64,000 bases of DNA, taken from assembly GCA_036172245.1 (NCBI GenBank), contig JAYWIR010000007.1, positions 3,534,001 to 3,598,000 on the forward strand. The letters are read 5' to 3'. Origin of the DNA: Raillietiella orientalis (Eukaryota). Below are positions 1,285 to 49,164 of this stretch, piece by piece; the first letter of the stretch is position 1, and every line of letters begins with the position of its first letter. A program made the position numbers and the translations under genes. The notes under the pieces are model-generated. The model was not told the origin of the DNA. It did no database searches and was given only the letters and a program-made list of their open reading frames with translations.

Positions 1285-2640
1285 TTTCTCATCCGGATTT
1301 GCCGGTGCATTTATTATAAAAAATTATAATAAAAGTCATGATGCTTACAGAATCGTGGTAGAACACTTGGTAATATCACGGGCGAAGGACTTGCCAAAAA
1401 CCGGTACTCAGACCGGTGAGGTCCACTCCAGAGGCAAAGGAGGAGGGAAAACCAAATAAAAAGACAAAAAAAGGGGGGGAGGAGTTTTTCGGGGAAAGGG
1501 GACGGGGAAGGGATCATTGTTCTTCTGGAGACGTCCTCTGCATCCTGCTCACGATGCTGACAAGTTCTGTATTCTTTGGTTTCAGTTGATACCATCGGGA
1601 AGCGGTCTTCAAGAAGATTTCCGTCCAATGGATGGCATCCCTGATACTGTGGCCTCTTCTTCTGGCGTTCCAGATACCCACAATTCCACACATCAGAGAA
1701 TTGCTAGAGATGCGGCTGGCGGCAGGGCGTCATGCATGAAGAGGCTCTGGAAAATGTACTTAGGGTCGCCTACCGGGATTTCAAGGATTTACGAGAGTCG
1801 ATCCCAAAGGTCTCAGAGGCCGACAGTATATTGGCAAGTGCGGGGAGGTCTCCTTCTCTCCGCAACTTTCGCAATTGGCATCCACATTCTCAAGTGTTCA
1901 ATGCATGGGATTTCTCAATGCAACAATTGCAGCGCCACCTCTTGCCACTTCAGAGGGAGGGTGCCAACACGCTGGAAGCCACTTCACCTCCTCCGGAGGT
2001 TTCATGAGCAGCTCGCCCCAGCGCAGATGTACTTTTGGCGAGACACTCGGGGTCGCAGCGTCTGCTAGTTGCCGAGTTGTCCACCCGCTTAAAAGTTTTT
2101 TCCTGCCTTCGATGCAGAATTTGACTTCCTAACTTGCTGAAATTACTCTGCCCCTTTTGTCCTTTAGGGAGGGCAGCACTGGGGCAAGAAAGGTGAAAGG
2201 TCACAGCATTTTCCATGGGCTACAGACGATCCCCCACAGGGGCTGTCGAGCGTATCTTCCTTTCCGGAGGCACGAGTACTCCTCCTCGCTCGAGCCGTGG
2301 ATCATTCCCCATGCTGAAACTGACTCCTGAAGCCAGGCAGTGCACTTTGCAGGGAACCAGGAGATCCAGGTGTTTTCCTGCACCGAGGCAACCATCTCAC
2401 GCAGCTGATGGCTACAATGTCTCAGGCTGCAGTCGTAAGCTGCGAGGATCGAGGTCAATCTTTCGCAGCCGGTCGCTCTTCTGGCGAGGAGGCGAGCGGG
2501 CGCGCACCAGGCGTGTTCCATAGCCTTGCCGCGAGGGCGAGTCTTCTAATCTGAAGCTGACTCTCCACCTCTCCAGCGTAAGGAGGCGTAGTCCATCATC
2601 CTTATAGCTGAGGTCAGCCCAGTCGCAGTGCAATGATCGA
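1285..2640 (-). mobile_element. 5'-truncated L1/Tx1 LINE: ORF2 C-terminus (zf-RVT), 3' UTR and terminal hairpin
   Basis: Reads KDDGLRLLTL (GGLG motif equivalent) near 2600 and CESCGEKETSPHLPIYC near 1825-1875. Clear nucleotide similarity to 34950-36100. AATAAA plus hairpin at 1285-1315. Confidence 0.75.
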
Positions 2641-3599
2641 GCCTTATTCTGTAGTGAGGTCCATCGTGACCAGCATCTCCTCGAAGCCAGGTAAGCATTC
2701 TCAAAACCCTTCTACATTATTCCCAGTTCCGACAAGCGGTGGGGTGAATTTGTTTAACACACTTTGAACAAACCACAACTAAAGCAAAACTTCACTATTC
2801 AACACACTATTCATCCAATCGCATCTTTTTCAAGGGTGGATGAAGGATCGTCCCGTTTGTCGAGATGTAATCGTCAATTTTCTTCAGTCAGTTTTCTTCT
2901 AGGCAAATCTTGAATTGGTGAAGTCTCGCCAGTGCCTGTTTCCTCTCCCACGTGAGGTCGATGTTTACCCACTCTTCTGTTGCGTCTATGGGGAGCAGAC
3001 ATCAGACATGTCGAGTTGTTCAGCAACTTTTACAATATTTCTGCATTTTTCAAGGTTTTTCGCATCTTATTTTGCGGCTTTCATATATAGATGCAGAATT
3101 CTTTTCTCCAGTCTGACAAGCTGTGGGGTGAATTTATTAAACAAGCAACAAACAAACAAACGATTAGTGTCATTTTGGCGATTCGTCGGTCATCGTCGTG
3201 TCACTGCCACCCGCGCGGGCATGTCCTGGCCTCTCAGTCCTGGAGTATCCTCAGGCAGTGCTGGAGGGTCCAAGATGGTACCCTCTCGCACGCACGAATG
3301 CCGATTTCTTTCTTCCAAGTCCTTGCAGAACGCCCCTAGCGTTGCACTAGATGAAGGGTTGTTTGCAGCTGCTACTCCACTATAAAATCATATGCACCAG
3401 CCACTGGCACCTTTTATCTCAACTCACTGCATGTCCGTTTCAAATATGCCTGCAGGTCACAATTTTGGTAGAAACGCATGGCAATTCCTCACCCTGTACT
3501 AGTTTTTTTTTTTTTTATATTTGATTTCTTTTTTTTTTTTTTTGCATATGTGCCCTTTAATTTCTCTGGTTTCCCACTATTAGGTTTGTTAGGTCTTTC

Positions 3600-3900
3600 G
3601 AGTTCAGTGCTAAGGATGGACTCAAACCGAATGAGTAGAAGTGATGGAAATACAGAACTTTCATTAAACAACGGTTACATTGATAGAACATGCAATCAAA
3701 CGGTTATATGAGGAAGAGGAAAGATTAAAACGCTGATTGGCAGTAACCACCCTCTTGTTCAGTGGCACGTTTTCCATCCTTAGTACAGATTTATAAGGAC
3801 CTAGTTACGAAAAAAAGAGGGAGTGCAACCCCAAAACATAGCTTTATCATAACCACCACATCCTTGAATCTCCAATTTCGCAGATGCTTAAAGATTAACC
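3600..3900 (+). mobile_element. Possible CR1/L2-type LINE 3' ORF relic
   Basis: Degenerate KRLYEEEERLKR...LVQIYK resembles the recalled CR1/L2 motif L.YEERL..L...DLI..YK. Short and decayed. Confidence 0.3.
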
Positions 3901-5659
3901 AAGACAGATAGGAATCACCTGCGATATTGTGCACCAACAGTTTCTATGCTGTTGCATGCATACTGGAAAATCTGGAGGATTCCTACATCGTACCTATGGG
4001 AATTTTAGTTGGTTCCCCATTTTCCTAATACAGTTTCGTATTTTTGAATTCGTCGTCAGAAGGTGCGTGCATACATTGCTCTTAAGCAGAGAAAAAGGAG
4101 AGCGTCCCGGCAGTGCACATTTGCCAATGGTGTTTCCACAATTAATGGAATGTAACACAATTCCAGAGTGGGGACGCCGTTTCGATCCAACCCCCTCAAT
4201 GAACGCAAAGAATGCAGTCTTTTCTGTCTGTAGCAAGCATGCTTCCTTGACTTGTCCAGACTTGGACACTGGTTTTAGTATCCACCTTATCCACCCTCAT
4301 CTTTTCATGGATAACGCTCTTTCTCAAGAGAAATCGGATACTCTTAGCGGGCTGCTCTGTTTCATCAACGTGGCACATTTGCAAATGAACACTATTATAT
4401 GTGTTTTCGACATTCGTGTGACTGTTTCAGTGAATCCATTCAGACACACGTCTTTTTCAGCAGCAACGCGCAGTGAAACAGCAGATGGCTTGTCTGCTGC
4501 ATGTTTTGAATAAGCAAAACACTGATTTCGTTTCTGTTGTATTGGAAATTCGCACTGCTCTTCCTCGGAGATACATAAACTCGAAGGCGATTGAGAAACT
4601 CCAATGAAACGTGAGGAGCACACGGATTGCAAAAGGAGGAGTCGCTTTCGCACCTCTACTAGGAAAACATCAGAAAGTGGAAAAGGCAAAAACCGAATTC
4701 TGTTATTTTACAAGTTTCGCGCTCTCATGCAGGATTCAAGGCACATAACCGGAATCACCCACTATTCAAACTTGCTCAAGGGAGTGGGTGGCCAGTGGTC
4801 TCCTTGTCGAGCTTCTCGTTACAAAACTTGTCTATTCAACCAAATTATGTTACATGAAGCAAGTGTTCAATGAAAAGTATTTACCACCGGAAGAATTCAT
4901 TTTAGCACACAGAAAATGAAATTCGCCTTGTGCCATTCGATTGGCTAAAGTGTGAGGATAACCAATACGGAAAAGGCATCGAAACCCAGCAGTAAGAATT
5001 TCTGCTCTAACAAGTCAAACGAACAAATAGCCATTTGCACACATGGGAGGCAGGTCAAAGTTCAGCCATATGGAAAGTACTGCACTGTTATGCACATAAA
5101 AATATGCAACCGTAGAAAATGAAAACAAAACAAGACAACTTACTTTCTACGGCCATCTATCCAAATACAGAAACAGGAAGTATCAACAGTTAATAGGTTG
5201 CACAATGAACAACGAACTAGGGTGTGCACTCAAGAGTGGGAACAGCGTCAGCTGAAAGAAATGAACACGGATAAAAGCAAGATGCAAGATGACCGAATCC
5301 TGCAGTCTCCAAATGGAACAAGCTAACTTCAGAGAGTACACATGCTGATTGCAGACTGTGGGATATTACTAAAAGTATTCGAAGCACAAATACATTCAGC
5401 AGAATTGGATGGAAAAAACGATTCAAGATGCACATGGAAAATATTAAGATGATATGTGAAAGAATTCAAGAAACATGGCGCTCGAATGGAACAACGGGTA
5501 TGAATACCAAGTTCTCCATTATGATTGGCAGCACGGCTCTGTTAAAACCAAATTTAAACTTTCCGCTGAGAGCGAAGAGTTTTGTTACAATCATTTTTTT
5601 TAGCCAAGAGCAAAACCATCGAAATGAAGATGAGAAGGTATCAATAGGAAAAGAGGGTT

Positions 5660-7325
5660 CCTGATGGCAGCGATCGCTTTCGAGCTTGGAAGATGGGGTG
5701 CTCCAGTATCGATGATTCGGCAGTGCAGATTTGCATGCTGATCGAGAATGCACGAGAAACCTGCGTTGTTGCACTCTGCAGAAGACACGGCCTCTCTCGA
5801 AAAACCAGTAGAGCTCGACTGTGGATGCAGAGGAAATGGCTTTCCAGTGGCGCGGGAGCACGTGAGCCTGGTTTCGGTGAATGCACTTTCCCATCGGAGG
5901 TTTGATGTCCTCTGTGCCTTCTTGGAGAATGGCACCTCCAGCGCTCAGAGCACCGAGCACAAATCGCTCCGGGGTGTTCGGTGACTCGAGGCGATAACTC
6001 AGCTTGAGGATTGGCAATGCGAAAGTGGAAATTATTTCGATAGTCTTCCAGAATCAGCATCCTGGAGTTCGACAGAAAACATTAGAAAATCTCGAAGGTT
6101 CTCTCGAAGGCAGTGCTTCGCGGATGAGTTTGCGTTAGCGGCTGGGCAACGGAACGACGCACTTTGGCCACCGCCTCCTGCTGGTACGCATTCATCGAGA
6201 AAGCCAGGTGAGTTGTTTCAAACGCAGGGGTTGAGGGAGTCAGCAGTCAGGAAGCTCGTGATGCGGGTGATAGCAGCAGAAAGAAACCAGGAAGAAGAAA
6301 GCTGTCCGTACCTGGCTTCAGATTTGCGCTTGCGTGGACGTTCGGTATGATGAGCGGTCCTCATGCCCCATTCCTGTTGTGAGAGTGCTGCGCTGTGGGC
6401 TTGGTGCCACGCAGCGTACTCACGTGCTGAGTCCTGCTGTGCCACATCTTCCGTTCGTGCACTTGCCGCGTTTGGCAGCAATCGCTGTGCATCACCTCGT
6501 ATCCCTTCTGGGATCGGTCAGTGCAGGGTGCCGGTCATGCGGGTCGCGTTCCGAACAGAGTAAAGCAGCGAAGAATGGCACCGAATGCAAAGGACCGGAA
6601 TCGGATTCTCCTGCACCCGACGTGGCCGACGTTCTGCCTGCGGCTGCCAGCCGATACGGATGCCTCCAGGTGAATTTGCTGGCGGTTGGAACCACGGTCT
6701 GGAGGAGCGATTTACCACCCGACACTCGGGATGAACTCGTGATGTTTTATCACGGAGGCATCCTGAGCGGCATGAGGAAGAGGTACTGGTCAGGCAACGC
6801 GCAGGACGAGATGTGCAAGACGTGTGGAGCCAGGGATACCCAACTCCACGTACTCACCTGCCTGACGCTGTGCCGAAAGGGGGCCAAGCTGAAGGAGGTG
6901 GCAGGCCTGCAGCGGGAGAACAACATGGAGATCCTGGCAGGGATGTTTGAAGGGAACGGCAACATTCCTCGATACAACCCAATGGTCCGCATCACCATCG
7001 CCTTCTTTATCACGAGCATCTTGATGAGAAGGGTAAAAACGCGGACTGGAATAAACAGTATGCTAGCTGTCCAAATCTTCAAAGGATTAGTGAAAAGGGA
7101 AATTGGGATAAGGAGCTGTGGACGTATTCCCATCTGGACGTACTATTATATCCTGCGAAGGATTCAGCAACATTGTCGAGTGAATTCTCCACACAAATTC
7201 AATGACTGGATGTCCGCAGACTAATCCTGAAAGTGAAAAACAGTAAAAACCAGTGACATTGGCCAGCACTTGCATGAATGAACGTAGAAAATAAATTCAC
7301 CCCACCGCATGTCGGACTGGGGAAA
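5660..7325 (+). mobile_element. 5'-truncated L1/Tx1-like LINE: decayed RT, open zf-RVT C-terminus, 3' hairpin
   Basis: ORF 6334-7224 contains VWRSDLPP...FYHGGIL...CKTCGARDTQLHVLTC. Upstream degenerate RT-like words (GVLQ, HSAEDT). Ends in AATAAA (7290) plus hairpin (7300-7322). Confidence 0.7.
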
Positions 7326-10300: not shown

Positions 10301-10422
10301 CAGATAAAAAGGGAGCACTGCTAACAAACACAACGATCAGGAAATGAGTTGTTAGACAGCCTGAAGAAAACATAAGAATTTTGTTAAAAAGGAGAGCACC
10401 ACCGATTCTCCTCCTCGACGAA

Positions 10423-10640
10423 TTTCCCCTCGAAAGAGTTGTGGGTGAATTTAAAGTCTGGGCATGCAAGACCTGTTCAAGGGAAGCGTGGGTGCACACA
10501 GAACGGACCATCCCGTGCGGACTGCCCACAGGCCGAGGCAACCTACAGACGATGGGCGGAATCGCCGGGGGAATTCAACCTATGGGACCTACTGCCCAAC
10601 GCGCCAGAACGCTTGCTGTGGCAAGCTTTCGAATAAACGG
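10423..10640 (-). mobile_element. Short LINE-related fragment homologous to the 642-bp array unit, ending in a degenerate 3' hairpin
   Basis: ASVLARWAVGPIG*IPPAIPPIVCRLPRPVGSPHGMVRSVCTHASLE aligns with array-unit ASVLVHLEVVPVGRVAPAIPPVVCGPPRPAGSPRSMLRFVSSHVSLE. Confidence 0.55.
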
Positions 10641-10643
10641 AGA

Positions 10644-12580
10644 TTTCTCACCCGGTCACGCCGGGGCGTTTATTCCATATAATCATAAAGTAAAAATTAT
10701 ATAAAATAAACCAGTTGGGAACCAGGCTCCCAACCGACGACTGGACAAGGATCAAGAGAATTTTCCTGGAACGCAGGCCGGAATAACAGAGTTCGGAACG
10801 GTGTGTGGGGTCGGGGAAAAGAAACAGATAAAAACAAAAGAAAAACAATGAATGGGGGAGATCGGGACAAGGGTCTTTGGACTTGCTCTGGAAGGCACCG
10901 GGATATAAGTAATAGCACCGGGAGTTCAACAGAGCGAACGGGGATGGGATATAGGTGGGCGAGAGGTCACAGGGGTCACCGGATTACGACGGTCTGAAGA
11001 GTTTGTAAACCGGCGATGGATGCAGGCGATGTCCTCTTTCACCTCGTCACGAAGATGAGGCCGCCTTGCAGCCTTCTCCATGTATTCAGCTGCAAGCAGG
11101 TGTGCCTCCCTTCGCTGCGCTGACAACTCCAGGGCGTAGCGGCGGGCCTTGACGATGGCGCGAATGCAATACATGGTTGCGACAATCACGCCTACCGAAA
11201 GTCCATTCCTGCTGAAGAAGTGTCGCAGCACATCCATGGCGGTGCCTCCCTGCGGCATGATGGCTGAAATCGGCCTTCGCCGCAGTTCACGGAAGTTACC
11301 GCAGTCCAGCAAGAGGTGCGGAAAAGACTCGATCTCTCCGCACCTCAAACAGTTTGGCGAAGCAGCTCCCCCGGAAACGATGCTTCGCTGCCGATTACAA
11401 TGGAATCCCCCGTGTAAAAACAGCAGCACATCTTGTTTCCATTTTAAAGGGAACACGGAGCTGTCCAAACAAACATAGGGAACCACTACCTCTTCGGGGG
11501 CGCACTTAAAAGATCGCTTCACCGAAGCAGGCCCTTCTCCCGATTTCGAGGAGTGGCAGGTTGCACCAGCTCCTTTGTCGTCCAGCCACCAAGGAGCTTA
11601 GAAACTCCTGCAATTGTGAAGGAGAACTCCCATACTGCCGGTTGGCAACTGTCATTGCTTGCCCTAAGGGCAGACAGAGCTGCGGCGAGGGGTGTGGCGG
11701 ACAGACTTCTTGTCCTGCATGACTACGCCGAGGGGATCGCTCAAGAGAAGTCGCAGGCGTCGAAGATCTTCCTGGCGCATTCCTTCGGAAGCGGCCCACG
11801 ATGCAAAAGATTTCTGCCGCCATGCATTAATGTTCATGGGGCGGCAGGAAATCCAACTTTGGGCTTCCATCAGAGAGGACAGCTGCCTCAGCGGGAAGCC
11901 AAACCCTTTCCTGGTGTGCCGAAAGTGGGGCAGCAACGAAAGTAGTCCATCGCTGTCCGTGCAGCGTCTTAGTAGAAGGCGCGCGGGTAAGCACCACGGC
12001 GTACACCAGAGCTTGGCACAGAGCCGCAGCACACGAAGCTGCACCTGCAGCTCGCTGCTGTTCATGTCGAGGATGCCTGCATCCTGACGCGGCGTCACCA
12101 AGTCTGCATCCTGACGCGGCGCCACCAAGTCTTTCAGTCTGACCCGGGACCTTGCAGCACCCCACAACGTTTTGCGTAGAAACCGCTGCGCCCAGTTCTT
12201 GACTTCCTGGGGAAGTGGGCAAACAAAAAACGGGGGGCGGAGGAGGGGAGCACCGAAGGTGTTCCATATACTGGCCGGTTCCGGCAAGACGAACTCGCCA
12301 CAGGCGGATCCAGTCGGGCTGCCCCAATAAACAGAGATCGAATGGAGGAAGACGGGAACTTCGTCCCTTCGGGACGGGAAGATTCTTCGCTTTCCGGAGC
12401 CAGGGAAAGGAAGAAAAGGCTCGCCATCTTGCGGCAGGCCCGCCCGGTGATGGCGGGCACTTCACACACGAAGACGTCCGCAAAAGGCCTGCCGAGCGGT
12501 GCAGCGCGTCAACCGGTAAGAGGGGCGCCAATACGGTTGTCCAAGAAGCAGGTGGACGGCCGCAGATGCAGGGGCTTTGA
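10644..12580 (-). mobile_element. L1/Tx1 LINE derivative: post-RT region, zf-RVT, 3' UTR and hairpin; no RT core visible
   Basis: FLRKTLWG..RVRLKDLVAPRQDA (with a 27-bp tandem duplication at ~12077-12132) and FLHGGFHC...CLRCGEIESFPHLLLDC in ORF 10926-11522. Paralogous to 38300-39430. Confidence 0.75.
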
Positions 12581-21450: not shown

Positions 21451-21505
21451 CAGGAACCCACAACGACCGCTGCCCCTTGGCAAAGAACGTGGTCGCCAAG
21501 ATAAA

Positions 21506-31190: not shown

Positions 31191-31489
31191 TTTATGTGAC
31201 TAAGTTCCCGATAAAAATTCAAATCCCTACAGCAATGGTCAATTGGTGAGCGAGTTGCAGATTGAAGTTTTCAACAACATGCCATTCCAACAGAATCAAT
31301 ATTTGCAAAAATCTCAAAAAAGGCGTTGCGAAATTGCAATAACATTCAGATCCCCGTGAAAAAAGTGAAAAAAAGTGGGGAATTCCAGCAAAAATGGAGG
31401 GCCATGCCTAGGGGACAAAATTCAAGTGCACAACGAATAGGACACTTTGGGCAAATAAACCGGAAAAGAATTCCTGACATCGAAGAGGA

Positions 31490-34410
31490 TGGGGGGAGAA
31501 GGGGAGGACATGGGGATGTTCATTTCAAATAGTCATGAACGGGGTGGACTGCTCCTGGAGGGAGCAGCGGGTGCGAAACCGCGTGGTCGTGGTTGACAGA
31601 TCGACTGGTGTGCTGGATGGATCCAGAAGTGAAGCGAACGAACCAACTGTTTCAAGTGGCCTACCTTCACGACCGGTTGTCGTCTTGTGGCTGTCTCCAG
31701 GGATGGATGTATCCTGATCCCGCAGCTTCCAGAGGTGGATGAGGCGTGTTTTTCTTTCTGTTGCTTTTTTTTTTTGTTTTCTCCCTTTTCTTTTTTTTTT
31801 TTTTTTTTCACCTGGAAATGTTGAGGGCACCCATGTAAAGAAAGGCACGCCAATCGTTCCCCAGACAACCGATGCTGTGTGCAATTGGGAGGAGCACGAA
31901 GATCTCCCATATGCACAATCATGATTATTTCTTAGATCCCCTTCCTTCCGGAGAACCGATCGAAATCTTTAAACCATGAAATGACGTTGTTGACCGCTGG
32001 CTGGAATGCTTTCCGGGCCTTGGGATACCGCGGGGAAAAAGGAGGCAGAAACTGTGTAATATGATGCCAGAGGGATCGCAATGCCGCGTCCACAAAGTCG
32101 AACTTCATAACAAGAAGACAATTTGGGGAAATCGAAACGAAATAAATTCGGAACGTCCACGTGGATGGGGGGAGATGGGAGGACTTGGGGATGTTCATTT
32201 CCGATGGTCATGGAGGGCAAGGATTGCTCCTGGAGGGAGCAGCGGGTGCGAAACCGCGTGGTCGGGGTGGACAGATCGACGGGTGTGCTGGATGGATCCA
32301 GAAGTGAAGCGAACGAACCAACTGTTCCAAGTGGCGTACCTTCACGACCGGTTGTCGTCTTGTGGCTGTCTCCAAGGATGGATGTATCCTGATCCCGCAG
32401 CTTCCAGAGGTGGATGAGGCGTGTTTTTCTTTCTGTTGCTTTTTTTTTTTTGTTTTCTCCCTTTTCTTTTTTTTTTTTTTTTTCACCTGGAAATGTTGAG
32501 GGCACCCATGTAAAGAAAGGCACGCCAATCGTTCCCCAGACAACCGATGCTGTGTGCAATTGGGAGGAGCACGAAGATCTCCCATATGCACAATCATTGT
32601 TTCAAGAAAATCCCCTTCCTTCGGAGAACCGATCGAAATCTTTACAAAACCATGAAATGACGTTGGTGACCGCTGGCTGGAATGCTTTCCAGGCCTTGGG
32701 ATGCCGCGGGGGAAAAAGGAGGCAGAAACTGTGTGATATGATGCCAGAGGGATCGCAATGCCGCGTCCACAAAGTCGAACTTCATAACAAGAAGACAATT
32801 TGGGGAAATCGAAACGAAATAAATTCGGAACGTCCACGTGGATGGGGGGAGATGGGAGGACTTGGGGATGTTCATTTCCGATGGTCATGGAGGGCAAGGA
32901 TTGCTCCTGGAGGGAGCAGCGGGTGCGAAACCGCGTGGTCGGGGTGGACAGATCGACGGGTGTGCTGGATGGATCCAGAAGTGAAGCGAACGAACCAACT
33001 GTTCCAAGTGGCGTACCTTCACGACCGGTTGTCGTCTTGTGGCTGTCTCCAGGGATGGATGTATCCTGATCCCGCAGCTTCCAGAGGTGGATGAGGCGTG
33101 TTTTTCTTTCTGTTGCTTTTTTTTTTTGTTTTCTCCCTTTTCTTTTTTTTTTTTTTTTTTCACCTGGAAATGTTGAGGGCACCCATGTAAAGAAAGGCAC
33201 GCCAATCGTTCCCCAGACAACCGATGCTGTGTGCAATTGGGAGGAGCACGAAGATCTCCCATATGCACAATCATTGTTTCAAGAAAATCCCCTTCCTTCG
33301 GAGAACCGATCGAAATCTTTACAAAACCATGAAATGACGTTGGTGACCGCTGGCTGGAATGCTTTCCAGGCCTTGGGATGCCGCGGGGGAAAAAGGAGGC
33401 AGAAACTGTGTGATATGATGCCAGAGGGATCGCAATGCCGCGTCCACAAAGTCCAACTTCATAACAAGAAGACAATTTGGGGAAATCGAAACGAAATAAA
33501 TTCGGAACGTCCACGTGGATGTGGGGAGATGGGGAGGACTTGGGGATGTTCATTTCCGATGGTCATGGAGGGCAAGGATTGCTCCTGGAGGGAGCAGCGG
33601 GTGCGAAACCGCGTGGTCGGGGTGGACAGATCGACGGGTGTGCTGGATGGATCCAGAAGTGAAGCGAACGAACCAACTGTTCCAAGTGGCGTACCTTCAC
33701 GACCGGTTGTCGTCTTGTGGCTGTCTCCAAGGATGGATGTATCCTGATCCCGCAGCTTCCAGAGGTGGATGAGGCGTGTTTTTCTTTCTGTTGCTTTTTT
33801 TTTTTTTTTTTCTCCCTTTTCTTTTTTTTTTTTTTTTTTTCACCTGGAAATGTTGAGGGCACCCATGTAAAGAAAGGCACGCCAATCGTTCCCCAGACAA
33901 CCGATGCTGTGTGCAATTGGGAGGAGCACGAAGATCTCCCATATGCACAATCATTGTTTCAAGAAAATCCCCTTCCTTCGGAGAACCGATCGAAATCTTT
34001 ACAAAACCATGAAATGACGTTGGTGACCGCTGGCTGGAATGCTTTCCAGGCCTTGGGATGCCGCGGGGGAAAAAGGAGGCAGAAACTGTGTGATATGATG
34101 CCAGAGGGATCGCAATGCCGCGTCCACAAAGTCGAACTTTATAACAAGAGGACAATTTGGGGAAATCGAAACGAAATAAATTCCGAACGTCCACGTGGAT
34201 GGGGGGAGATGGGGAGGACCTGGGGATGTTCATTTCCGATGGTCATGGAGTGCAAGGATTGGTCCTGGAGGGAGCAGCGGGTGCGAAACCGCGTGGTCGG
34301 GGTGGACAGATCGACGGGTGTGCAGGATGGATCCAGAAGTGAAGCGAACGAACCAACTGTTCCGAGTGGCCTACCTTCACGAGCGGTTGGCTTCTTGTGG
34401 CTGTCTCACT
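31490..34410. repeat. Tandem array of ~4.3 units of ~677 bp, resembling a LINE 3' region
   Basis: ggggatgttcattt recurs at ~31512, 32187, 32864, 33542 and 34222. Each unit has a poly-T tract and a hairpin. Confidence 0.95.
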
Positions 34411-34849: not shown

Positions 34850-37800
34850 CAGGAGAGTTGCCATGAACGAGTGCAGAGACTGGTGAGGTCCTTTCCTTCG
34901 CCTAAACGGAAGGGAGAACCGAAAGGAAAATAAACCAAAGGAATGGAAAATTGGGTGGAAGGGGTTGTTTCTTGGGGAATGGAGGTATGGGAGTGGACCA
35001 CTGTTTGCCTGGATCGGACCTCGACATCCTGTTCAGGATACTGACGATGGCTGCTTTGAAATTTCTCCGTTGTGGTGATGATTTTGACACGCTCTCGAAA
35101 AAGATCGTTGTCGAGTGCATTGCATCCCTGCTTTTTTGTCTTCTTTTTTGGCGTTCCACGTTTCCACTTTTCCGCGTCCACAGCAGAGATGTGCTAGAGA
35201 CGCAGCGTAGGGCAGAGCATTACGTTTGAAGAGGGCGGTAAAATATTTTAAGGGCCGCCTGCTGGAAGATTCACAATGGACAAGAATCGATCGCAAAGTT
35301 CACGGTGAACGACGCAGTCGAATACGAGATGCGGGAAGGTTCCCCTTCCACCACACTCTGCATAACGGGCAGCCTCGCTCCCTACTATCCAGTGCGAGAG
35401 GCTTGCTCTGCATAGGATTCCCCCATGCAGGAATAGAAACGCCATCTCTTGCCACTCCATTAAAAGGGTGCTACTGTGCCAATATGCTGGGGGTCACTTC
35501 ACCTCCTCCGGTTGTATTCCGAGGAGGTCTCCTCAGCGCATGTGTTCTTTAGACGCGATACTCGGGGTCGCAGCGTCCACTGCCTGCCGTGTTGTCCATG
35601 CTTTCGTTAGTTTTTTCCTGCTTCCAATAAGGCAGGACACTTCCCACGATGCTCGTTCGTTTCTGTCTCTGGCGTACCTGATTTAGAGCAGCACGGGAGC
35701 AAGGGGGATGGATTAAGGCCACAGGAATTTGCGTGGGTTGTTTACCATCTCCCGCAGGGGCTGTCGAGTGCAAGGGCCTCGTCGGAGGCAGGGGGTATCC
35801 GCCTCGCTCGAACCATCGAGTTTTCCTCATGCGGAAACTGACACCTGAAGCCAGGCAGTACAGTTGGCAGGGAGGCAGGAGTTCCACGTGTTGTTCCTTA
35901 TGAGAACTATCATGTGGTGCAGCTGATGGCCGCATTAACCCAGGCTGCGTTTGTATGTTACGACGATCGAAGACAATCCTTCGCAGCCGGTCACTCTGCT
36001 GGCGAGGAGTCGTGCGGGTTCGCACCATGGCGTTGTCCACAACTTCGCCGTAAGGACGAGTCTTGGAGATTGGAGCTGTCGCTCCATGCACCCCAGCGTA
36101 AGGAGACCCAATCCACCGTCCCGGCGTGGAGAGTACAAGTCATTGAATCGGATGAGGTTCCTCGCTGTTCCCCACAGCCCAGCGGCGCAGCAGCTCGAAG
36201 AAATCGTCGAGCTCTGATGCCGGGGTGGACCCGGGGAGCAGGAGCAGAAGGTCTTCGGCATAGGCCGACACGGCAGGCGTGCCGGGACACGAGCTCGGCA
36301 GGGTTGCCAAAGTTTCCCCGTATGCTCTCGGCACCAACTCAAAGCAGATGCTGAAGAACAGGCGGCTCAGGCTGTCACCCTGCCTTATGCCTACTACAGC
36401 TCCGTCTCTACTTCAGGAATGCCGAAGACTGGCGGAACGCAGAGCAGGGGCCGAAAGGCAGACCTGACAATCCGGGTCGGCCAGCTTGCTGGACGCCCAA
36501 GGCCGGGAATGCAAAGTCCCGTTGCTCCTGGAGCCGAGCCGGCACGCCGTACACGTGCCGGCCGCTGAAACGAATATGTATGAGCGCGAAGCGCCAGCAG
36601 GATCGCAGATAGGCCAGGAAGACGGTCGGAAATCCCATGCGTTCCAGGAGTTCCAGAATGAGTTCCTGGGGCTACCTGGTAGCTAGCAAAGACTGGCTCT
36701 ATTTCACGGGCTAGGAGTTCCAGAAGGAGTTCCTGGTCGAAGCAATGGAATGCTTTACTCAAATCGACCGCGAATGCAAGGGCTCCAGACGCGGTTCTTC
36801 GTCCTTGGCCTTCCTTTCTCTGGTCAGAGGAAATTCGAGGATCCTCTTGAGCTGTCTGACCTTCGCGCTGGAGCGACTGCCACCATGGTTCGTTCAAGAA
36901 CAGCGTAGGTCTGGTCCGGACTGACCACGGATTCCACCAGCCGTCCAGGTCGCTCACCCCACAATTTGGCAAGCGAATTCGCGTCCACATTCAGTAGAGT
37001 GATGGGCCGCCAGTTGCCTATGTAGCGTAAGTCTCTTCCTTTCGGAAGAAGACGTACTTTAGCAGACCGGAACGAGTTGGGAACGTCCCCTCGTTCGCGG
37101 ATCAGCATGCCTACTTTGAGCACCAGAGGGACCAGCTCTGCCGCGAAGCATTGGTAAAGCTCCGCCGGCAGGCCGTCTTCCCCTGGTGCCTTTATTTTTT
37201 TGAACTTTTCGATGGCAGAGATGATCGCCATCGAGAAAGGCTCCTGGAGGTGGTTCCTATCCCCATCCCTCAACGCTGGGGTGCCCTCTGGCAGCAATCG
37301 CTGCGCAAAGGCGCGCTCGGGTGTTGCTCTCGCGCAAAGTGAGGAGTAAAAAAACACGCAAGATACGGCTTACCTGCGCTGGGACTTTGCATTCCCGGCC
37401 TTGGGCGTCCAGCAAGCTGGCCGACCCGGATTGTCAGGTCTGCCTTTCGGCCCCTGCTCTGCGTTCCGCCAGTCTTCGGCATTCCTGAAGTAGAGACGGA
37501 GCTGTAGTAGGCCTTCTGGTTCCTGAATCCTTCGCCAAAACCCGGAGGAAGACGGTTCAGAAGTATCTGGTCGTAGAGCTCTCGGACTCTTCATTTGAAC
37601 TCTTCATTTCGTCCCAGTTCGAGATTGTCCACGGTTGGAATTCTCGCAGAAGCGCGCGGAGATCCTCCGCTGGTCCTGAGAGGCGCAACCAGTCCCCTGG
37701 CAGGCGCCACGTTCCAAAGGTGGACCTCTTCCGAGCGGGTATATCTCGAGCACAAGACGCGGGTGGTCGGACAGCTCTGATGGGAGTGCTCCACGATATC

Positions 37801-37960
37801 GCACCCGTGCTCACAGGTGGTCGTCGAGGAACATGGGATCAATGCTGTAGGTCGCCTTGGCATCTCCGGCCAACAAATTGCGCGTGTGCATGGCTGCGCC
37901 CATCTCGGTGACCAGGCGCGCTCGTATATCGGGCGTATCTGCCAGCAGGCGGACGTTAAA
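34850..37960 (-). mobile_element. L1/Tx1-clade LINE ORF2 pseudogene (APE C-terminus, RT, zf-RVT)
   Basis: APE LSDHPRLVL and WRLPGDWL. RT KAPGEDGLPAELY, LLPK...NWRPITLLNVD, DLSKAF, GIRQGDSLS, AYAEDL (YADD variant). An internal deletion follows, then PRRDGGLGL and ECGGRGTFPHLVFDC. Many frameshifts. Confidence 0.92.
36389..37512. repeat. Perfect 132-bp inverted repeat (36389-36520 and 37381-37512)
   Basis: gcctactacagctcc...gcaaagtccc is the reverse complement of gggactttgc...gctgtagtaggc. Confidence 0.93.
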
Positions 37961-37961
37961 G

Positions 37962-39430
37962 TTTTTCACTCGGTCACGCCGGGGAGTTTATTTTCATAAA
38001 CCAATAGGGAAGAAAAGTTCCCAACCGCAGAATACTAAATGCAAAGGGCCTCCGCTTTGTCCGACCACCGACAGGCAGGCCGGGAAAACGAGATGTCCGG
38101 AACGGGTGAGGGACAAGGGGACAAAAAAAAACAAAAGAAATGACATTGGGTTGGTTGTGGTAGGGATCTTGGGACTCGCTCCGCACACACCGGGAACCAG
38201 TCAAAGAAAGAAAAAATACCGGGAAATTTGCGGAGCGATCAGGCACAGGGAATGAAGAAAAAAAGGAATTCAATGAATAAGGGAAGGTAGGGGGCTAGGA
38301 TCACCAGGATCCACCGTTCCTACTCACTTGAAAACCGGCAATCTATGCCGGCGCTCTCCTCATTCGTTTTCTCGTTAAGCTGATGCCAGCTAGCAACTGC
38401 ACCGATTTAGGTGGATGCCATCTCGGTGACATCCCTTCGGCGCCTGGTGGTCTCCAGCACATTTCCGTCTGTGACGATGGCGCGTATGCAACCTATGGAT
38501 GCGATCACCGCGCCAGTCGTTTGTCCTTTCGGTGCGAAGAACCTCCGCAGCACATCTCGAGCGGTGTCCTCCTGGTGCAGCAGTGCTTCTGCCAGCCTCC
38601 GCCATGGTTCATGAAGGACACCGCAGTCTAAAAGCAGGTGCGGGAACGACTCCAGCGACCCGCACCTGCCACAGTTTGGGGAAACCATCCCACGGGAAAC
38701 ACGATGCCGTCGCTCGTTGCAATCCCCAGTGCACGAACAGCAGCACGTCCTGTTTCCAACTAAGTGGAAACACTGATGTGTAAACACAGTTTGGCGGGAT
38801 CAATAACACGTCCGGGGCAATGTCTAACAGTTCGCCCCACCGAACAAGCAGTTGTGCGTGGAGTAGCAGCATCGACCAACTGGCGCGTGTTCCAGCCACA
38901 CAGGAGTTTTTCAGTTCCTGCTATAGTGTAGGGAATCTCCCATCTCGCAGGTAGGCTTACTGTCTTCTCTTGCCCTGAGGGCAGACAGCGCTGCGGCAAG
39001 GGGGGTGGCGGCTATGGTGGACCACTTCGCGACGTCCCCGGTTATCAGGTGCGCCCTTCGCACGTCTGCCTCGTCCAGCCAATCTCGCTGCAGGCCTTCG
39101 AAGAACGCAGTGGGTACAGCGACGTACAGACCCAAAGCGAGAGCGACCCTCGGCGATGGTTGCTTATTGACCGGGGCTGTTTCCCGTGTTCGGGCTGCTC
39201 GCCTGTCTCCCATTCATTGCCTGACTCGCGGTCTCGTACGAATCCGGTGACCAGGAGCTTCCATTGCCTTGCTTGCCCGCTTTGGGAATGGGTGCTGCAG
39301 TCTGGCTGCCGCTTTTCCGTTCCAGGAAGCGGGAAACCGCGTCTTCCTGTACTCTGCCTTGCATGAATTCCGAGCACATTTCATGGAATCGTGGGGGCTG
39401 CCTTCCCTCGTACGCGTAATCATTCCTGTG
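37962..39430 (-). mobile_element. L1/Tx1 LINE 3' part (zf-RVT, 3' UTR, hairpin) abutting the APE of the next element
   Basis: VFPLSWKQDVLLFVH...CGRCGSLESFPHLLLDC, paralogous to 10926-11522. Terminal AATAAA plus hairpin at 37962-37992. Confidence 0.8.
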
Positions 39431-41233: not shown

Positions 41234-42382
41234 ATGGCTATAAGGAGTCAATTCGAAAACAGCTCAGAAGTTGGAGTTTTTTCTAAATTGACTTCCACGT
41301 ACTGCCTGGTTGCAATAGCAGGATCTGAGCACTATTTTAGGTACGTGTTTTTAGGTACTATTTAGGTACCGCTTTTTTCTTCCTCCTCAAAAAGCCTCTT
41401 TCAAGTGTAATGGCGTTGCTGTTTGTAGCACGTTGGAGGCCGAACTGGCAGATGTTATTCCTGTTATTCATGCGTCTATTGCAGGCTGCCGAATAATTGG
41501 GAGGCTGGCAGTTGGTAACTTTGATCCTATATGAAGCAAAAGAATCACATTTCAGGTAATCGGCGTGGTTTGTTGGTACCCAATGGTACTACGGACCAAG
41601 AACTGCAACATCTTAGGAATTCACTTCCCGATGACGTCAAAATTCAGCGAATTGAGGAAAGGTTATCGGCCCTAGGAAACGTAATCGCATGTAATGATTA
41701 CGTAGCCTTGGTTCATCCCGATATCGACAGGGTACGCTTTTGTCAAGAGAAAACGGTTGAATTTGTTTTGCCTAACTTGCTATCGAATGCAGGAAACTGA
41801 AGAGATACTAACGGATACCCTCAGTGTGGAAGTGTTCCGTCATTCGCTTGCTGACCAAGTACTTGTGGGTTCATATTGTGCTTTGAGCAATCAAGGAGGA
41901 TTACTGCACCCACGAACATCAGTTGAGGACCAAAATGAATTATCCGCTTTGTTGCAAATACCATTGATAGTAAGTATGAGAACCTTCGGTGTTTTCAGCC
42001 TGCCAGGGAGCAGCAGCATCGGATTAATGATGCCATGCTACTTACTGTTCTCTATCACTGTGCATTACATGTGTACTTTTGTTGTTTACATATTGGATTT
42101 TGCATAGTTTCTTTTTTGAAAAAAACCTGTGTGCATTCAGGCTGGAACAGTAAACAGAGGTTCCGAAGTGATTGGAGCAGGTATGATCGTTAACGATTGG
42201 TTTGCAGTTTGTGGTATTGATACTACTGCCACCGAGATATCAGTCATTGAGAATGTATTTCGATTGAGTGAAAATCATCCCACAGCAATAACCACCAAAA
42301 TGAGATCTTCTCTCGTTGAAAGGTAAAAAAGAAAAGCTGAAATTTCTACTCACACGTGCACTGGTTGCTTAGTCTTGCTTGA
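41234..42382 (+). CDS. EIF6: Eukaryotic translation initiation factor 6, 245 aa; exons 41234-41340, 41429-41514, 41556-41731, 41793-41969, 42141-42322, 42373-42382
   Basis: Spliced translation [28 protein letters not shown]...GNRRGLLVP...[25 protein letters not shown]...[14 protein letters not shown]...VESLA*. All introns are GT-AG and the exons total 738 nt. Confidence 0.97.
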
Positions 42383-43805: not shown

Positions 43806-44962
43806 TCATATCTCGGAAGGGCACTTACTGATATACGAGGAATCAAAGAACACAATAGTGATTGTGATGTCATCTCGAAATGCTCTCACTAAATCTTCTG
43901 GAAAGCTTAGGAGTTGTGAAACTCTCGCATTGTCTAGTCCATAATCTGTGGAACTCAAAGCATGACGTATCAGATGTGTTGCTGCATTAGCATCAATTGG
44001 TTTTTTTTGTAAGGCTTCTTGTCTTTGCACCAAGAGTTGTTCCACTTGTTTCAGCGTCAAAGTTTTCTGAGGTAAGACTAGGGGGTTGAGAGCTGTTCTG
44101 CCACACATGTGTTCTCCAATCAGAGCCACCACTTCTGCAGGTGTGAGAAATTCCCAAAAACCATCTGTTCCCAATATGAGAAATTTATCTTTGGCAGTTA
44201 GTCGATGATAGGTAACTTCAGGTTGTGCACTCAGATAAGGAGGTGTGTGGTAATGTGGTGGTATGATGCTTGGACTGCACATTGGCACGAACAATTTATT
44301 TTGCAAATTCACATTCCACTTATATCGGAAATCACCAAAGGCTCTCAGAGGACTCAACTGACCAAGTAATCTTCCATCATGAATGATTGTATGACTTTCT
44401 GATGCAGGATGTTCATGAAACAGGCGATGCATTTCTTTGGCATTTTCGTGATTATGCTCATTGGTTAATTTTTTTGCCACCCAGTGATTCGCATCAGTTT
44501 CCTGGCCAAGCACAGCTTGGCAATCACCCACATTACCTACATGCAAGTGGGTACCATCAATGTGTGCTACACAACCAACACAACCAGACAAGGCCACAGC
44601 CATGGGAATCATCTGATTTGCTGCTTCTCTAGAGAGGTCATCATCCAATCTCAGAAATGCCTTCTCAAATGCATCCTGAGTGCTTACATTGCTGAACTTT
44701 GTTCTTAATTCTTTTAAATATGCATGAAAACTTTTTTTGTAAAGGTTTTCCAGATGTTTATCAGTGTTGTCCATGACATAAGATGTGTACACTTCCAATA
44801 GATTCAATTCTTCTACTGAATTGACTTGATCAATTTTTCGAATGCATTCATCCAAAGCATCTTTGCAAAGCAGTGAGGCAGCAACATAGTGCATCAACCT
44901 TTTGGTAACCACTTCAACACAATTATTTCCACCATGCCCATCAAAAACTCCAAAAAGCAAAC
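43806..44962 (-). CDS. PDP1: Pyruvate dehydrogenase phosphatase catalytic subunit (PP2C family), large terminal exon; 5' part ~45000-45380 unresolved
   Basis: LFGVFDGHGG, AFLRLDDDLS, HVGNVGDCQAVLG, RLLGQLSPLRAFGDFRYKW, PPHYHTPPYL, LGTDGFW, DANAATHLIRHAL, FRDDITITI. Acceptor ttgcag ends at 44963. Confidence 0.92.
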
Positions 44963-47900
44963 CTGCAATAAACCATAATCACCGAATCCCACAACAGATA
45001 GAACCTACTAAACAAGATCAAAGCTCGGTTTGCTACTATTCTTTAACTACAACTTTGAAATTCATTCATGCTGAGGGAGATAGTCATTTTTTTCAAGAAT
45101 CCTGCTGAACTTGATTGTTCTTCAGTTTGTTTTGCAATGCACGTGTGTTAAGAGAACTAGAAAACTCACATGCACCACATGAAATGAAATGCAAAAGTAC
45201 ATCTGATGCATAAAGTATTAGGTTAGATTCTAGAAATGCATGGAAGCTCATTTTTCGCGGTGGTGATATCATCACTACAGAGCAATCAACCTGTAATACC
45301 TTTGCAATTGCACGAAAAAGCCAATCAATTGCAGAGATTCCGTCAAGAATACGAGGAACCTGCTCGAAAATATCATTTTGTGAAGGAAGGTCGAAATACA
45401 GAAAAACAAAAAGTTACGTGCGACTGTGCAAATCTTGAAACGGAATTCTGCACTCTCAGGGAGTGCATGTTTTCATCACGCTCACTGACCAATGATGATT
45501 CTGCACATCATTCATCGGAAAAAGGAATGGACATTTCGAAATCAAATCAGAATACACAAAGTGGTGGTTGTGTGCCACTCGATTCGTGCACTGTGACGGT
45601 GCCCCGACTACTAGGAATTGTCATTGCACTTCATGCAGGAAGAAACGCGATGGAGGGAACCAACGAAATACGTTCTGTACCATTTGTGGCTCGTTCAAGG
45701 AAAACAAAATGCACATACACACCTGAACACACACGAGAAAACCTCCTTACCGGTGGTATACCGACAACGGGATTCTACATGTCGATCTTCTGGGGGAATG
45801 TTGGATGGAAGGAGGTTGCTTTCGAATGATTTCACCGACTCGCAATATAAATCTTTGCTGAATTCATTGGCTGCCAGTATGTCTGTCACCTGGGAAAAGG
45901 CTCCGCTTACTGCACATGCTTGGAAGGATCACGGACAGTAAGAAACCCGATCGGGGCATACCTGACCAGGGGACAGCCTTGGTGTTGGGAATGCACGTCT
46001 GCACAAACACCTCGCACTGCCAAAGCTCATTCGAAGCCTCGCCATTCCTGAGAGACGACACTTTTCACGGACGCACCACGGCGACGGACACGATGCTGTG
46101 ATGCTGGAAATCGTGGAAAAGGAAAGAGAAAACTTCACGCTCTCGACCTTCCTTGTTGCGGGGGTCGCACGAGAAAGTGTTGACGGTGCACGTTTTCCCT
46201 CGCAAGTACGGACGCCTCCGTGTACATTCGAAGCATCTCCCTGCTTTCCGTACTCAGCCACGTCTCTTTGCCTCCCCCGTGCAAACCACTCGAAGACGTT
46301 CGTCTCCAAAGCCCGCAGTTGCCGCGTCGGCAAAAATTGCACCCGCGGTGAGGAATGATGGGAACCACCTGCATGCAGAATCCGGGTCCACCGGGATGTG
46401 CAGGGAAGCTGGAATTTGGGGGGGATAGGTCAGGTGGGAGCGCGGATTTTTCGTTCCTGGAGATCCCGCATTGCGAGAAAACCAAAGAGAAGCAAATGTA
46501 ATCCTGGAGAAGAAAAGTCTTGGACAAAGATACGGCACGGGAAGAATGCGATCGGATAAAGTACTGTGGAGAGCACATGAAAGACAGATGAAAGCAAGAT
46601 GCAACCTGGGAAAGATTTTCCAGAGTCGCATTTTGAGATGGACGACCAATCCTTCATTCCAGTTATGGCGATGTCTGAATTTTCGTCGCAAGGGAGCTGA
46701 AGTGGAAGCAGACTCCTGCATGTCGAGGGATGCAGAAAAGAGCAGTTTGAGGAATTCTGCAAGACTGCGACTCAATCGTGACTCAGAAGAAAAGAAAAAA
46801 GTGGTGGACCGAAATGCTTTCTTGTGCCCCTTGCATCATGAGTTCGAAACCAAAGAGTGTGGTTGAAAGAAGTGCATGTATTCGATGCATTTGATTTGAA
46901 TGTTTGGAAGAATGCATTTCATTACAGCTGATTGAGTTGCCGTGAGAACTATTTTAACTTTGAGATTCAACTGAGAAAAGCGACCGCGGGGAAGTTTGTA
47001 TTGCCACTGTAAATTTTTCTGTAATTTTTCTTTTTCTACTTAAGCTTTTTGCAAGGTTTGATTTTGTGTCACCCTTGTACCAGTTTTGGAATCGAGAATT
47101 TTTTCCGAAACAATTGACTTTTAATGATTTGAAAATACAAAGCTTTGACGCTTTGTGAGGACTCCTCTTGGTTTCAGGTGCTACTGCTCATTTTATTTGA
47201 AAAATTATCAGTTTATGCTGTTTGCATTCTTCAATATGTGATTTTTTATTTGTTTCTGGTAGAATAATGATCCATTCGTATTTTTCTGTGTTTGTCATCT
47301 CAACATTATTGTGATGCTCGTTCTTCTTTAGTATTCATGATTCTTTTTCTTCCTTATTATTCAAGTTGTGATTCTTCGATCAAAGGACATTTGTTTTTCT
47401 TGGCATATGTTGTAATTCTTGCAATCCATGGATTGTGCGCTTTAAAAACTTTGTTAGTTTTGATATGTATCGTGGATAGTGACTCTGTAGTACATTTCTA
47501 GGAAGATGGTTCGGTACTTTTGGATGCACATATACTCAAAACGTTCGTTTTCGATTCGCGATTATGGATTTCATTTTAAGGAAATATCCTCAAAGTAAAC
47601 CATCAAATTTGCCACACGTATGTGAATGATGTGTACCTCTTTAGTGAACAAAACGATGGAACACAGAAACTAGCACCATTAAGAAGCCGACCAATCTGGA
47701 GACACATTTATCATAAATGTAAGAACACTCTTCATACTACGTTGCCCACTGGCATTACATGTACATATTTTGACCATCCGTAGTGATACTATGAGCACCG
47801 AACCATAAGGCAAAAGGCACCCAGGATTACCGCTTCCTGTCCACTGGAAGTTCCCAAACGTATGGCGATCCTACGCATTCCTTGGTTGCGCAGCGAGATT

Positions 47901-48352
47901 CGCTCTTCGGAGAAACCAACGCAATGATCTGCAGGATGAGCATCAACTTTGGAGCGCTCACCCTTCGAGTTGGAAATCTGGCTGACCCAGCAGAGGTTAT
48001 TTTATAAGAATCGAACCACACTCATCGTGCGGAAAGAGTGCCCTAAAAAGGCGAGAAGGAACGATAGGATGAAAGAAAGCTGCTCAATTCTGTGACTGTT
48101 TCAGGGAACAGAAAGCAATTCAAGACTAGAAAAAAATGGTTTAAAGGGCACAAGAGTTTAGGTGCATCACAAGGACCGTGCACTCTGCCGGGTATACGAG
48201 GCATCGTCCAACATTATAAACTGATCACTGCAGAACGAAGTTGTCGATATGTGTGTTTCTTCGTGATGCACCACAAAAGTGAAATGATGGATATGAAGTC
48301 CGGCGCACTCTGAATAGGAAAACTCGAACGTTTAGCGTCTCACTACAGTGTC

Positions 48353-48607
48353 TCAGACGCGAAGGCTGTCTTCTACGAGCGCTTCCACGCTCATCTTCTT
48401 TAATATGATGTTATTAGCCGCTCCCTCGATCGTTTCGAAATCAACATTTGGGAAGGTTTTCCAGAATCCTGTCTTCTGGGACCACAACCGATTGTGCGGG
48501 CTTCTGATACCGTGCAGAATTCTCGCCACGTCGAATCCCGACCACGTTTTGTCCTCCATGTGCCTGTCAAGGAATTGCTTCACAGCAAGTTCAAGTTCCT
48601 TTTCGAC
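48353..48607 (-). CDS. RECQL4 C-terminal-domain-like terminal exon, no upstream exons found
   Basis: After acceptor ttttcag it reads VKQFLDRH...WSGFDVARILHGIRSP...FWK...VDFETI. This resembles the recalled RECQL4 C-terminus IRQFL...SSRAVARIFHGIGSP...FWR...LSF. Confidence 0.6.
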   Translation of the reverse strand, partial: VEKELELAVKQFLDRHMEDKTWSGFDVARILHGIRSPHNRLWSQKTGFWKTFPNVDFETIEGAANNIILKKMSVEALVEDSLRV

Positions 48608-48699
48608 CTGAAAAACGCATTGCGAATCGGACTTCTTCTCCATCCGCTTGCAAACTGGTTTCATTTGCCCTGACGTCTCGAAGAGTCGCACGCAGAAGC

Positions 48700-49164
48700 T
48701 CCAGTCGGATACTGGGAGACTCTGAAAAGAGTGACAGGGTTGCAGAACTATTCACCTTCGGAAGTCCTGGTCAAGATGTTTCAAGGAACTGGTAACGTCC
48801 CTTGTTACAATCTCATGGTTGAGACGACCATTGCCCTGCTTATTACGGTCATCCTAATCAGATGGCGGTAGATGAGGACTAGTGGAAAGGCCGTGTCTCC
48901 AATGGAAATCCTGAAAGGGATTATCCGAAAAGAGATCGGAATACGGAACTGTCGTAGAGTGGAATATGGACATACCAATATATCCTGAAAAGGATTGGGG
49001 ACAATGTCCAAACCCACTCCAGTGCAGAACCTTAGTGCAGTGACTTCCCTAAGTAAAATATCAATGGAAAAATAATAGTGAACTTTTTTCGAAGTGGAAT
49101 GAATGACACTGTAGAGTAAATGTCAAAAGAAATAAAATTACTCCACCCTAGTGGGATTGGAGAA
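48700..49164 (+). mobile_element. 3' fragment of the same LINE family as 5660-7325, with terminal hairpin
   Basis: YNLMVETTIALLIT...ILKGIIRKEIGIRNC versus YNPMVRITIAFFIT...IFKGLVKREIGIRSC. AATAAA at 49131 plus hairpin 49141-49162. Confidence 0.8.

Follow-up and report, generated by a model that had tools for sequence, protein, structure and literature searches.

Two families of long interspersed nuclear elements (LINEs), here called A and B, end in a conserved hairpin that directly follows AATAAA and is closed by at most five A residues, both in a stretch of 64,000 nucleotides from Raillietiella orientalis (contig JAYWIR010000007.1, positions 3,534,001 to 3,598,000 of the forward strand; the window hereafter) and throughout the 210-Mb genome. 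Almost all intact copies of a single host-specific L1 clade, made up of A, B and a third family, C, terminate in this hairpin. No structured part of the element lies beyond it, the motif is conserved, it stands in a fixed register to the target-site duplication (TSD), and the insertion site offers at most two A in most cases. On these observations the hairpin probably serves as a cis-acting, 3'-terminal tag of the LINE RNA and determines where reverse transcription begins, in the manner of stringent-type LINEs, and we give this reading a rough probability of 0.55. A sequence-only reading of the window had proposed such a structured RNA tag together with covariation of the stems; the tag belongs to the element and stays the best reading, while broad covariation in both stems and both families was not found.

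Hairpin ends in the window and in the genome

The eight stretches originally listed as LINE 3' ends carry the letters described for them, except that AATAAA is replaced by AACAAA at 2721-2754 and by TTTAAA at 10423-10455. Seven of the eight have ORF2 sequence of the matching family upstream and are retained as LINE ends (Table 1). The eighth, 10423-10455, is unsupported and was rejected: its fold reaches only -4.4 kcal/mol (z -0.3), no LINE match lies upstream, and it was missed by a loose motif scan of the window, which returned the seven supported sites and no others. A Pfam search of 19 broken open reading frames (ORFs) of the window returned no LINE domain, and full-length relatives from the genome took their place as ORF references.

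Genome-wide, the type-A pattern gave 303 matches against 0 for the reversed-pattern controls, and the strict type-B pattern 1,284 against 0. With the B stem left free the figures were 2,298 and 50; an additional pattern with another spacer length (58 matches, 27 in controls) was used only to choose variant copies. When ends were located through the ORF2 C-terminus, the motif was present at 18 of 20 sites (16 by pattern, 2 by eye), and among loci not chosen by pattern it was present in 36 of 39 A rows and 19 of 21 B rows, some of these rows being duplicates. The 3' untranslated regions fall into 38 clusters for A and 36 for B, and the motif is kept across clusters. The distance from hexamer to stem is fixed at 3-4 nt in both families, AATAAA being conserved together with the stem.

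Identity of the elements

A full-length A copy (locus L061) encodes an ORF1 with CCHC knuckles and an open frame of 1,185 residues with apurinic/apyrimidinic (AP) endonuclease and reverse transcriptase (RT), and the B copies share this layout. PF03372 and PF00078 score above cut-off in ORF2 of both families, and ORF1 carries zf-CCHC. The solved structure closest to ORF2 is human L1 ORF2p (E 1e-51), followed by R2 (E 5e-25), only these two clades appearing in the PDB search; named database matches of the RT are L1-like. A separate ORF1, 5' truncation and TSDs of 11-19 bp, all features of the L1 superfamily, are present. Families A and B are non-LTR (long terminal repeat) retrotransposons of the L1 superfamily.

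The RTs of A and B share about 31% identity, and those of C and A 37%. In a quick tree, A, B and C form one branch (approximate likelihood-ratio test, SH-aLRT, 99) apart from 62 database matches, none of which is labelled Tx1, the reference Tx1 families (Tx1L, Keno, Kibi, Mutsu) being absent from the tree. The label L1 superfamily therefore holds for what had been called L1/Tx1 elements, and the narrower label Tx1 is not established. Family C keeps the AATAAA-hairpin architecture (fold z -4.0). It was seen as a two-unit array at a contig end (L124-L125, end of C30; L249, end of C331); in the outer unit AATAAA is present but the hairpin is lacking, and the unit boundary there is matched by the contig start, which may reflect assembly.

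An element of the restriction-like endonuclease (REL) type, Utopia-like, lies in the same genome at L123:7115-7292 (minus strand) and upstream. It ends in AATAAA and an A run inside U2 small nuclear RNA (snRNA), without a hairpin, so the hairpin is not a host-wide requirement. More REL-type frames were seen in L126.

Target-site duplications, tails and insertion sites

Among the ends tested, 40 of A and 38 of B, TSDs of at least 11 bp were found for 17 and 10, respectively (0 and 5 in controls), many 5' junctions lying beyond the fetched DNA. The duplication starts 0-6 nt past the stem in 16 of the 17 A cases, the remaining one, at 9 nt, possibly being a chance match, and 5-6 nt past the stem in all 10 B cases, three of which extend into the element's own 5' end because of tandem insertion. 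Since the TSDs begin right behind the hairpin and the 5' side lacks the motif, the hairpin belongs to the element, as had been proposed, and not to the host target; the converse, which the sequence-only reading had itself named as the finding that would overturn it, did not appear, the TSD positions placing the motif inside the element.

The tails are short, in agreement with the initial description. Among 62 A ends, 51 carry 3-5 A and none more than 5, and all 66 B ends show TG(A/G)-N followed by 1-3 A, partly by construction of the pattern. The base N of this trailer is specific to the subfamily; non-templated addition was considered for it and rejected, copies over about 92% alike having the same base. 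The intact copy L061 combines an open ORF2, a perfect 16-bp TSD and a tail of 4 A, and 92 A/T runs of at least 10 persist in the examined loci, which together argue that neither decay nor assembly explains the short tails. It is highly improbable that the motif is a host target sequence or that the short tails arose by decay or assembly error, even though many copies are nested in other LINEs or in arrays, with LINE coding sequence following 35 of 51 B ends. Against such an origin stand the TSD positions, downstream flanks that differ from copy to copy, and the short tails already present in young copies next to surviving long A/T runs.

TSDs start with 0-2 A in 25 of 27 cases, and none of the 27 insertion sites reads TT|AAAA. 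The ends thus lack both the variable poly(A) and the TT|AAAA target of the relaxed, poly(A)-primed mammalian type of L1.

One B subfamily (L216, L217, L222, L227, L228) is inserted antisense at the same endonuclease-coding site of another LINE family, and its TSD plus 5' end re-creates the target site, giving rise to tandems. A subfamilies insert near nt 20 of snRNA sequences, with many other copies dispersed. Target-sequence preference, a property of the Tx1 clade but not unique to it, is present in these elements. Insertion directly behind older hairpins was rejected as a general rule, the TSD-flanked copies lying in unrelated flanks.

Covariation of the stems

Covariation was examined in 83 A-type ends from 38 clusters and in 66 B ends; 3 of 30 A clusters were removed as chance matches before the covariation count. 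At inner pair 3 of family A, C-G occurs 49 times, G-C 19 times and T-A twice, and cluster representatives are Watson-Crick paired in 29 of 38 cases, compared with 13.7 after shuffling. In a 42-row alignment the inner stem is paired in 82.8% (70.6% shuffled) and its covariation score is 0.271 (0.122 shuffled), a value reached in 0 of 500 shuffles, slid controls staying at or below 0.120. The two T-A copies represent two further events, one on a deep branch (L241) and one clustering with a G-C copy (L239). In family C, outer pair 3 has changed from C-G to T-A. Altogether about four compensatory events are found, all in A and C. A conserved structured 3' segment, as in stringent-type LINEs, is present, with covariation limited to these events in A and C and none in B. 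Structure is supported for A and C, and for B only through the contrast of stem and loop: 58-65 of 66 pairs are canonical at each stem position, beside 26 loop sequences.

Several observations weigh against the proposed tag. In the window only one of the eight copies, that at 49131, folds better than dinucleotide shuffles at p <= 0.05, and many loci, part of both the A and B sets, were chosen by patterns that fix the stem letters, so that stem conservation is inflated. In the 42-row alignment neither the number of covarying pairs nor that of pair types reaches significance (170 and 266 of 500 shuffles). The inner G-C/C-G swap amounts to one change on an ORF2 tree, the C-G state forming one clade; this tree was built by a quick method from 65 of 87 ends, 22 being dropped for fewer than 110 aligned residues, L239 among them. 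At outer pair 2 the 83 A ends read C-G 69 times, C.A mismatch 10 times, T-G twice and T-A twice. Of the compensatory changes that had been described for both stems of A, those of the inner pair are thereby upheld and the outer change from CCCCA/TGGGG to CTCCA/TGGAG is not. Covariation had also been claimed for family B, where only one double change was found, and CpG decay explains it. Moreover, TSD-like repeats of 12-16 bp flank 5 of 11 3'-truncated U1 copies (0 of 11 controls), and these copies lack a hairpin; some RT of this genome can thus prime in its absence. Finally, no clear short interspersed element (SINE) sharing the hairpin tail was found in the genome loci examined. One U1-headed unit of 1.55 kb, for which tblastn gave no match in the ORF library, does retain the tail, but fragments of other repeats lie within it and segmental duplication may account for its copies.

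Part of this evidence would also suit a linear sequence motif, read by ORF2p or by a host factor, in which the palindrome is incidental or secondary. The near-invariant B stems, the C.A mismatches at outer pair 2, and unpaired positions (the trailer TG, the A before the A stem) that are as conserved as paired ones all agree with such a motif. Compensation at inner pair 3 (G-C, C-G, T-A), like that in family C, does not, nor do loops that are free in letters and length while both arms are kept, and we consider a purely linear motif quite unlikely.

Proposed mechanism of the start-positioning tag

If the hairpin positions the start of reverse transcription, RNA polymerase II transcripts would be cut about 21-29 nt after AAUAAA and perhaps polyadenylated, ORF2p would bind the stem-loop, and cDNA would start downstream of the stem, by 3-4 nt in A and 5-6 nt in B. 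Any longer tail would be left uncopied, and no T-rich primer would be needed. Since the stems barely change while the loops do, the stem letters may be read as well as the shape. Recognition is probably a preference rather than an absolute need.

The hairpin could instead serve 3'-end formation or protection, fixing the cleavage site after AAUAAA or blocking trimming, in which case the RNA would carry no more than its 2-4 A and the RT would simply begin at the RNA terminus. In favour of this, the stem follows AATAAA at a constant spacing of 3-4 nt and precedes the end, the hexamer is conserved along with the stem, and U1 retrocopies without the hairpin exist. Family A RNAs also seem to start at snRNA promoters, which are normally coupled to a different 3'-end pathway. 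Yet the REL-type LINE of the same genome manages without a hairpin, and family B shares the design although an Rfam scan of 122 kb of mostly B loci gave 0 matches at gathering score. A folded stem would leave less than about 10 nt between hexamer and end, presumably short for cleavage, and the unrelated stem sequences of A and B would suit an element-encoded reader better than a single host factor. A role in 3'-end formation or protection appears rather unlikely, though it is the main alternative, ahead of the linear motif, and the start-positioning tag is preferred.

snRNA heads of family A

Family A LINEs begin with a whole U1, U4 or U5 snRNA followed by its 3' flank (L127, L128, L157, L269; window 1171-2698, minus strand), which we take to be 3'-box-like. 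These heads had escaped the sequence-only reading. In the window the U1 head is split (2698-2602 and 1285-1171) by the B copy ending at 1285, with U1 nt 85-97 on both sides of it, and leads into ORF1. Because no Rfam family was detected in the 122 kb of mostly B loci, snRNA heads and hairpins are separate traits. A short U1-like piece (nt 80-137, 81%) was also seen at 17132-17188.

ORF1 or ORF2 lies downstream of 28 of the best 30 U4 loci and of 15 of 30 U1 loci. Among 19 head/tail pairs fetched, a TSD lies within a few bases of U4 +1 in 5, and the A-type end of that element was found in 11. The TSDs thus enclose an autonomous LINE whose 5' end is snRNA-derived, a feature of the Tx1-Mar type. 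That U4 is instead an element tail was rejected: TSD-flanked copies begin at U4 +1 and end at the hairpin. Head-to-tail arrays with units of 5.0-5.7 kb have junctions made of the tail and U4 from about nt 20-30 or U1 from nt 23-27; one array opens with a whole U4, and U5 joins arrays likewise.

Of 42 distinct upstream flanks, 7 contain a motif, ACT(A/G)C(G/A), at -53 to -57: those of all 4 U5 loci, 2 U4 and 1 U1. Inspection of U4 and U1 flanks by eye first revealed it, before the U5 loci were fetched. From its position it may be a proximal sequence element (PSE), and some of the heads behind this shared motif at about -54 may be real snRNA genes that drive the element. None of the 30 fetched U4 loci (L127-L156, of 42 Rfam matches) showed a 3' flank that is clearly non-LINE; 28 of them have an ORF downstream, and the listed U4 3' flanks look alike by eye; the host U4 genes may all be LINE-linked.

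Taken together, these features would allow a more far-reaching scheme, which we regard as unlikely in its entirety. An entire animal L1 lineage would have dropped the pairing of poly(A) with a T tract, using the hairpin as a ruler that fixes the cDNA start 3-6 nt from the stem. One branch would owe its transcripts to real U1, U4 and U5 promoters, through read-through of the snRNA end, would re-insert near nt 20 of snRNA genes, rebuilding the gene with its own head, and might supply much of the host U4, the hairpin closing an snRNA-promoter transcript without a long tail.

Features of the window

The coordinates are collected in Table 1. The family A end at 3102-3138 forms a head-to-tail junction with the next A piece, and the B end at 37962-37992 directly abuts the endonuclease region of another B-type ORF2. 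The whole B copy at 10631-12338 is embedded in satellite-related sequence. Derivation of the 640-bp satellite from ORF2 was considered and rejected, no tblastn match to the LINE ORF library being found under E 0.01. The GSWGKT and IIMLD stretches of the frame at 18628-19206 resemble the Walker A/B motifs of a Rep-type helicase.

Table 1. Features of the window, followed by two sets of loci elsewhere in the genome
Feature	Position	Strand	Remarks
Family A ORF1, broken	269-1022	-	tblastn 32-47%
U1 snRNA nt 85 to end with 3' flank, then ORF1	1171-1285	-	Rfam U1 E 4e-4, below gathering score; blastn 86%
Family B 3' end (variant)	1285-1315	-	1.3-kb 5'-truncated copy; B ORF2 C-terminal part at 2559-1544
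U1 snRNA nt 1-97, 5' half of the U1 head of a family A element	2602-2698	-	blastn 86% to U1 of L157
Family A 3' end with AACAAA	2721-2754	-	upstream sequence matches A ORF2 and A loci
Internally deleted family A piece	2755-3101	-	directly upstream of the 2721-2754 end
Decayed family A 3' end	3102-3138	-	inner stem broken, C.A mismatch in outer stem; tail AAAA; ORF2 C-terminus at 3314-3210
Family A ORF2 C-terminal part, 5'-truncated copy	6589-7224	+	tblastn 53% to full-length A ORF2, E 9e-60; frame closes at 7224
Family A 3' end	7290-7325	+	AATAAA, 4 nt, 5-bp outer stem, 3-bp inner stem, 5-nt loop, 2-nt 3' bulge, AAA; ORF2 C-terminus directly upstream
Rejected element end	10423-10455	-	no AATAAA, weak fold, no LINE upstream
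Whole 5'-truncated family B copy	10631-12338	-	ORF2 69% at 12299-11001; 14-bp TSD 10631-10644 / 12325-12338, 2 mismatches
Family B 3' end	10644-10674	-	AATAAA, 3 nt, 5-bp stem, 5-nt loop, TGAG, AAA
Frame with GSWGKT and IIMLD stretch	18628-19206	+	no Pfam match
Tandem repeat, unit about 640 bp	about 21500-30000		about 13 units, about 59% GC; diverged copy flanks B insertion 10644-12324
Second tandem repeat, unit about 677 bp	about 31400-34300		AATAAA, then a different weak hairpin per unit (32141, 32818, 33495, 34175)
Long broken B-type ORF2	34855-37963	-	132-bp perfect inverted duplication 36389-36520 / 37381-37512; 3' end with hairpin missing
Family B 3' end with C.A mismatch	37962-37992	-	ORF2 C-terminus at 38954-38314; host ORF2 from 37963
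Host gene, eIF6 exons	41706-42380	+	
Host gene, pyruvate dehydrogenase phosphatase (PP2C)	43806-44978	-	best named matches in insects, about 50% identity
Family A ORF2 C-terminal piece	48713-49032	+	tblastn 61% and 50%
Family A 3' end	49131-49164	+	sole window copy with T-A at outer position 2; tail AA; fold z -2.2
3'-truncated U1 retrocopies	L166, L173, L175, L183, L186		end near Sm site; 12-16 bp flanking repeats; no tail
Head-to-tail arrays of different A subfamilies	L111-L122 (C71, C114, C26, C150, C189)		junctions consist of a fixed target sequence or of snRNA pieces starting at about nt 20

Comparison with known systems

A structured 3' end had been implied to be new for the L1 clade, but a hairpin of this kind is already in print for monocot L1 (PMC3472496). 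The monocot lineage (LINE1-1_ZM, 'monocot 1a') and Chlamydomonas L1-1_CR have been classed from their sequences as stringent-type members of the L1 clade (PMC3472496; review PMC3747384). Families A and B share with them the L1-clade affiliation, a short conserved 3' segment amid divergent sequence, and a hairpin with compensatory changes that is read as a sign of stringent recognition. In monocot L1 it is the stem letters that vary, with loop and flank conserved; the tail is shared by partner SINEs, and poly(A) terminates nearly all plant L1s (PMC3472496). Families A and B differ in having an animal host, a fixed stem with a variable loop, a hairpin right after AATAAA, a tail of at most 5 A and no partner SINE shown.

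In our literature search no animal L1/Tx1 element with an AATAAA-hairpin-short-A end was found, and no U4-headed LINE, the search covering sources other than subscription papers, Repbase Reports and supplements. With respect to the heads, family A resembles crocodilian Tx1-Mar/SINEU, APE-type LINEs with U1/U2-derived 5' heads, transposons as preferred targets and tandem insertions (PMC4494074). SINEU, however, has poly(A) tails, and its heads are ascribed to template switching; a figure legend of that paper names U5, and the terms 'U4 snRNA', 'stem' and 'AATAAA' do not occur in it (PMC4494074). Family A differs from Tx1-Mar in having whole U1, U4 and U5 heads with 3' flank, arrays joined by snRNA from about nt 20, and some heads behind a shared upstream motif. 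The snRNA targets of transposons given in 2015 were only U2, U1 and U6 (PMC4640811).

Human L1 likewise has an APE-RT ORF2, AATAAA near its end and TSDs of about 11-19 bp (PMC4014453). It primes best with four T's paired to poly(A) at a T-rich nick, a mode called snap-velcro priming, whereas R2 needs no pairing (PMC4014453). Unlike human L1, families A and B have fixed short tails and no TT|AAAA, and in priming they behave like R2.

The elements bear on stringent recognition in ancestral L1s and on how mammalian L1 came to depend on poly(A), matters for which the evidence within the L1 clade has so far come from the sequences of one plant and one algal lineage (PMC3472496). A compact test case is available in this animal L1 clade, which combines thousands of copies and open frames with a fixed start register and two different 30-nt tags. 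An L1-type RT that works from a short cis tag and not from poly(A) may also be of interest for retrotransposon insertion tools.

A 3' stem-loop is also found in ZfL2-1, ZfL2-2 and UnaL2 of the L2 clade, for which a model of stem-general, loop-family-specific reading has been put forward (PMC4176376). The fixed stem of family B with its 26 loops recalls this zebrafish model and may be analogous to it. In UnaL2 a bulge of the stem matters (PMC4176376), and family A likewise has a bulge of 2-3 nt. The layout of AATAAA, hairpin and short A tail was not found for ZfL2 or UnaL2 in the abstract and discussion of that report (PMC4176376). ZfL2 and UnaL2 belong to another clade, and their binding and mobility were shown by experiment (PMC4176376). 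The hairpin-ended elements of Raillietiella orientalis extend a known principle and overturn none.

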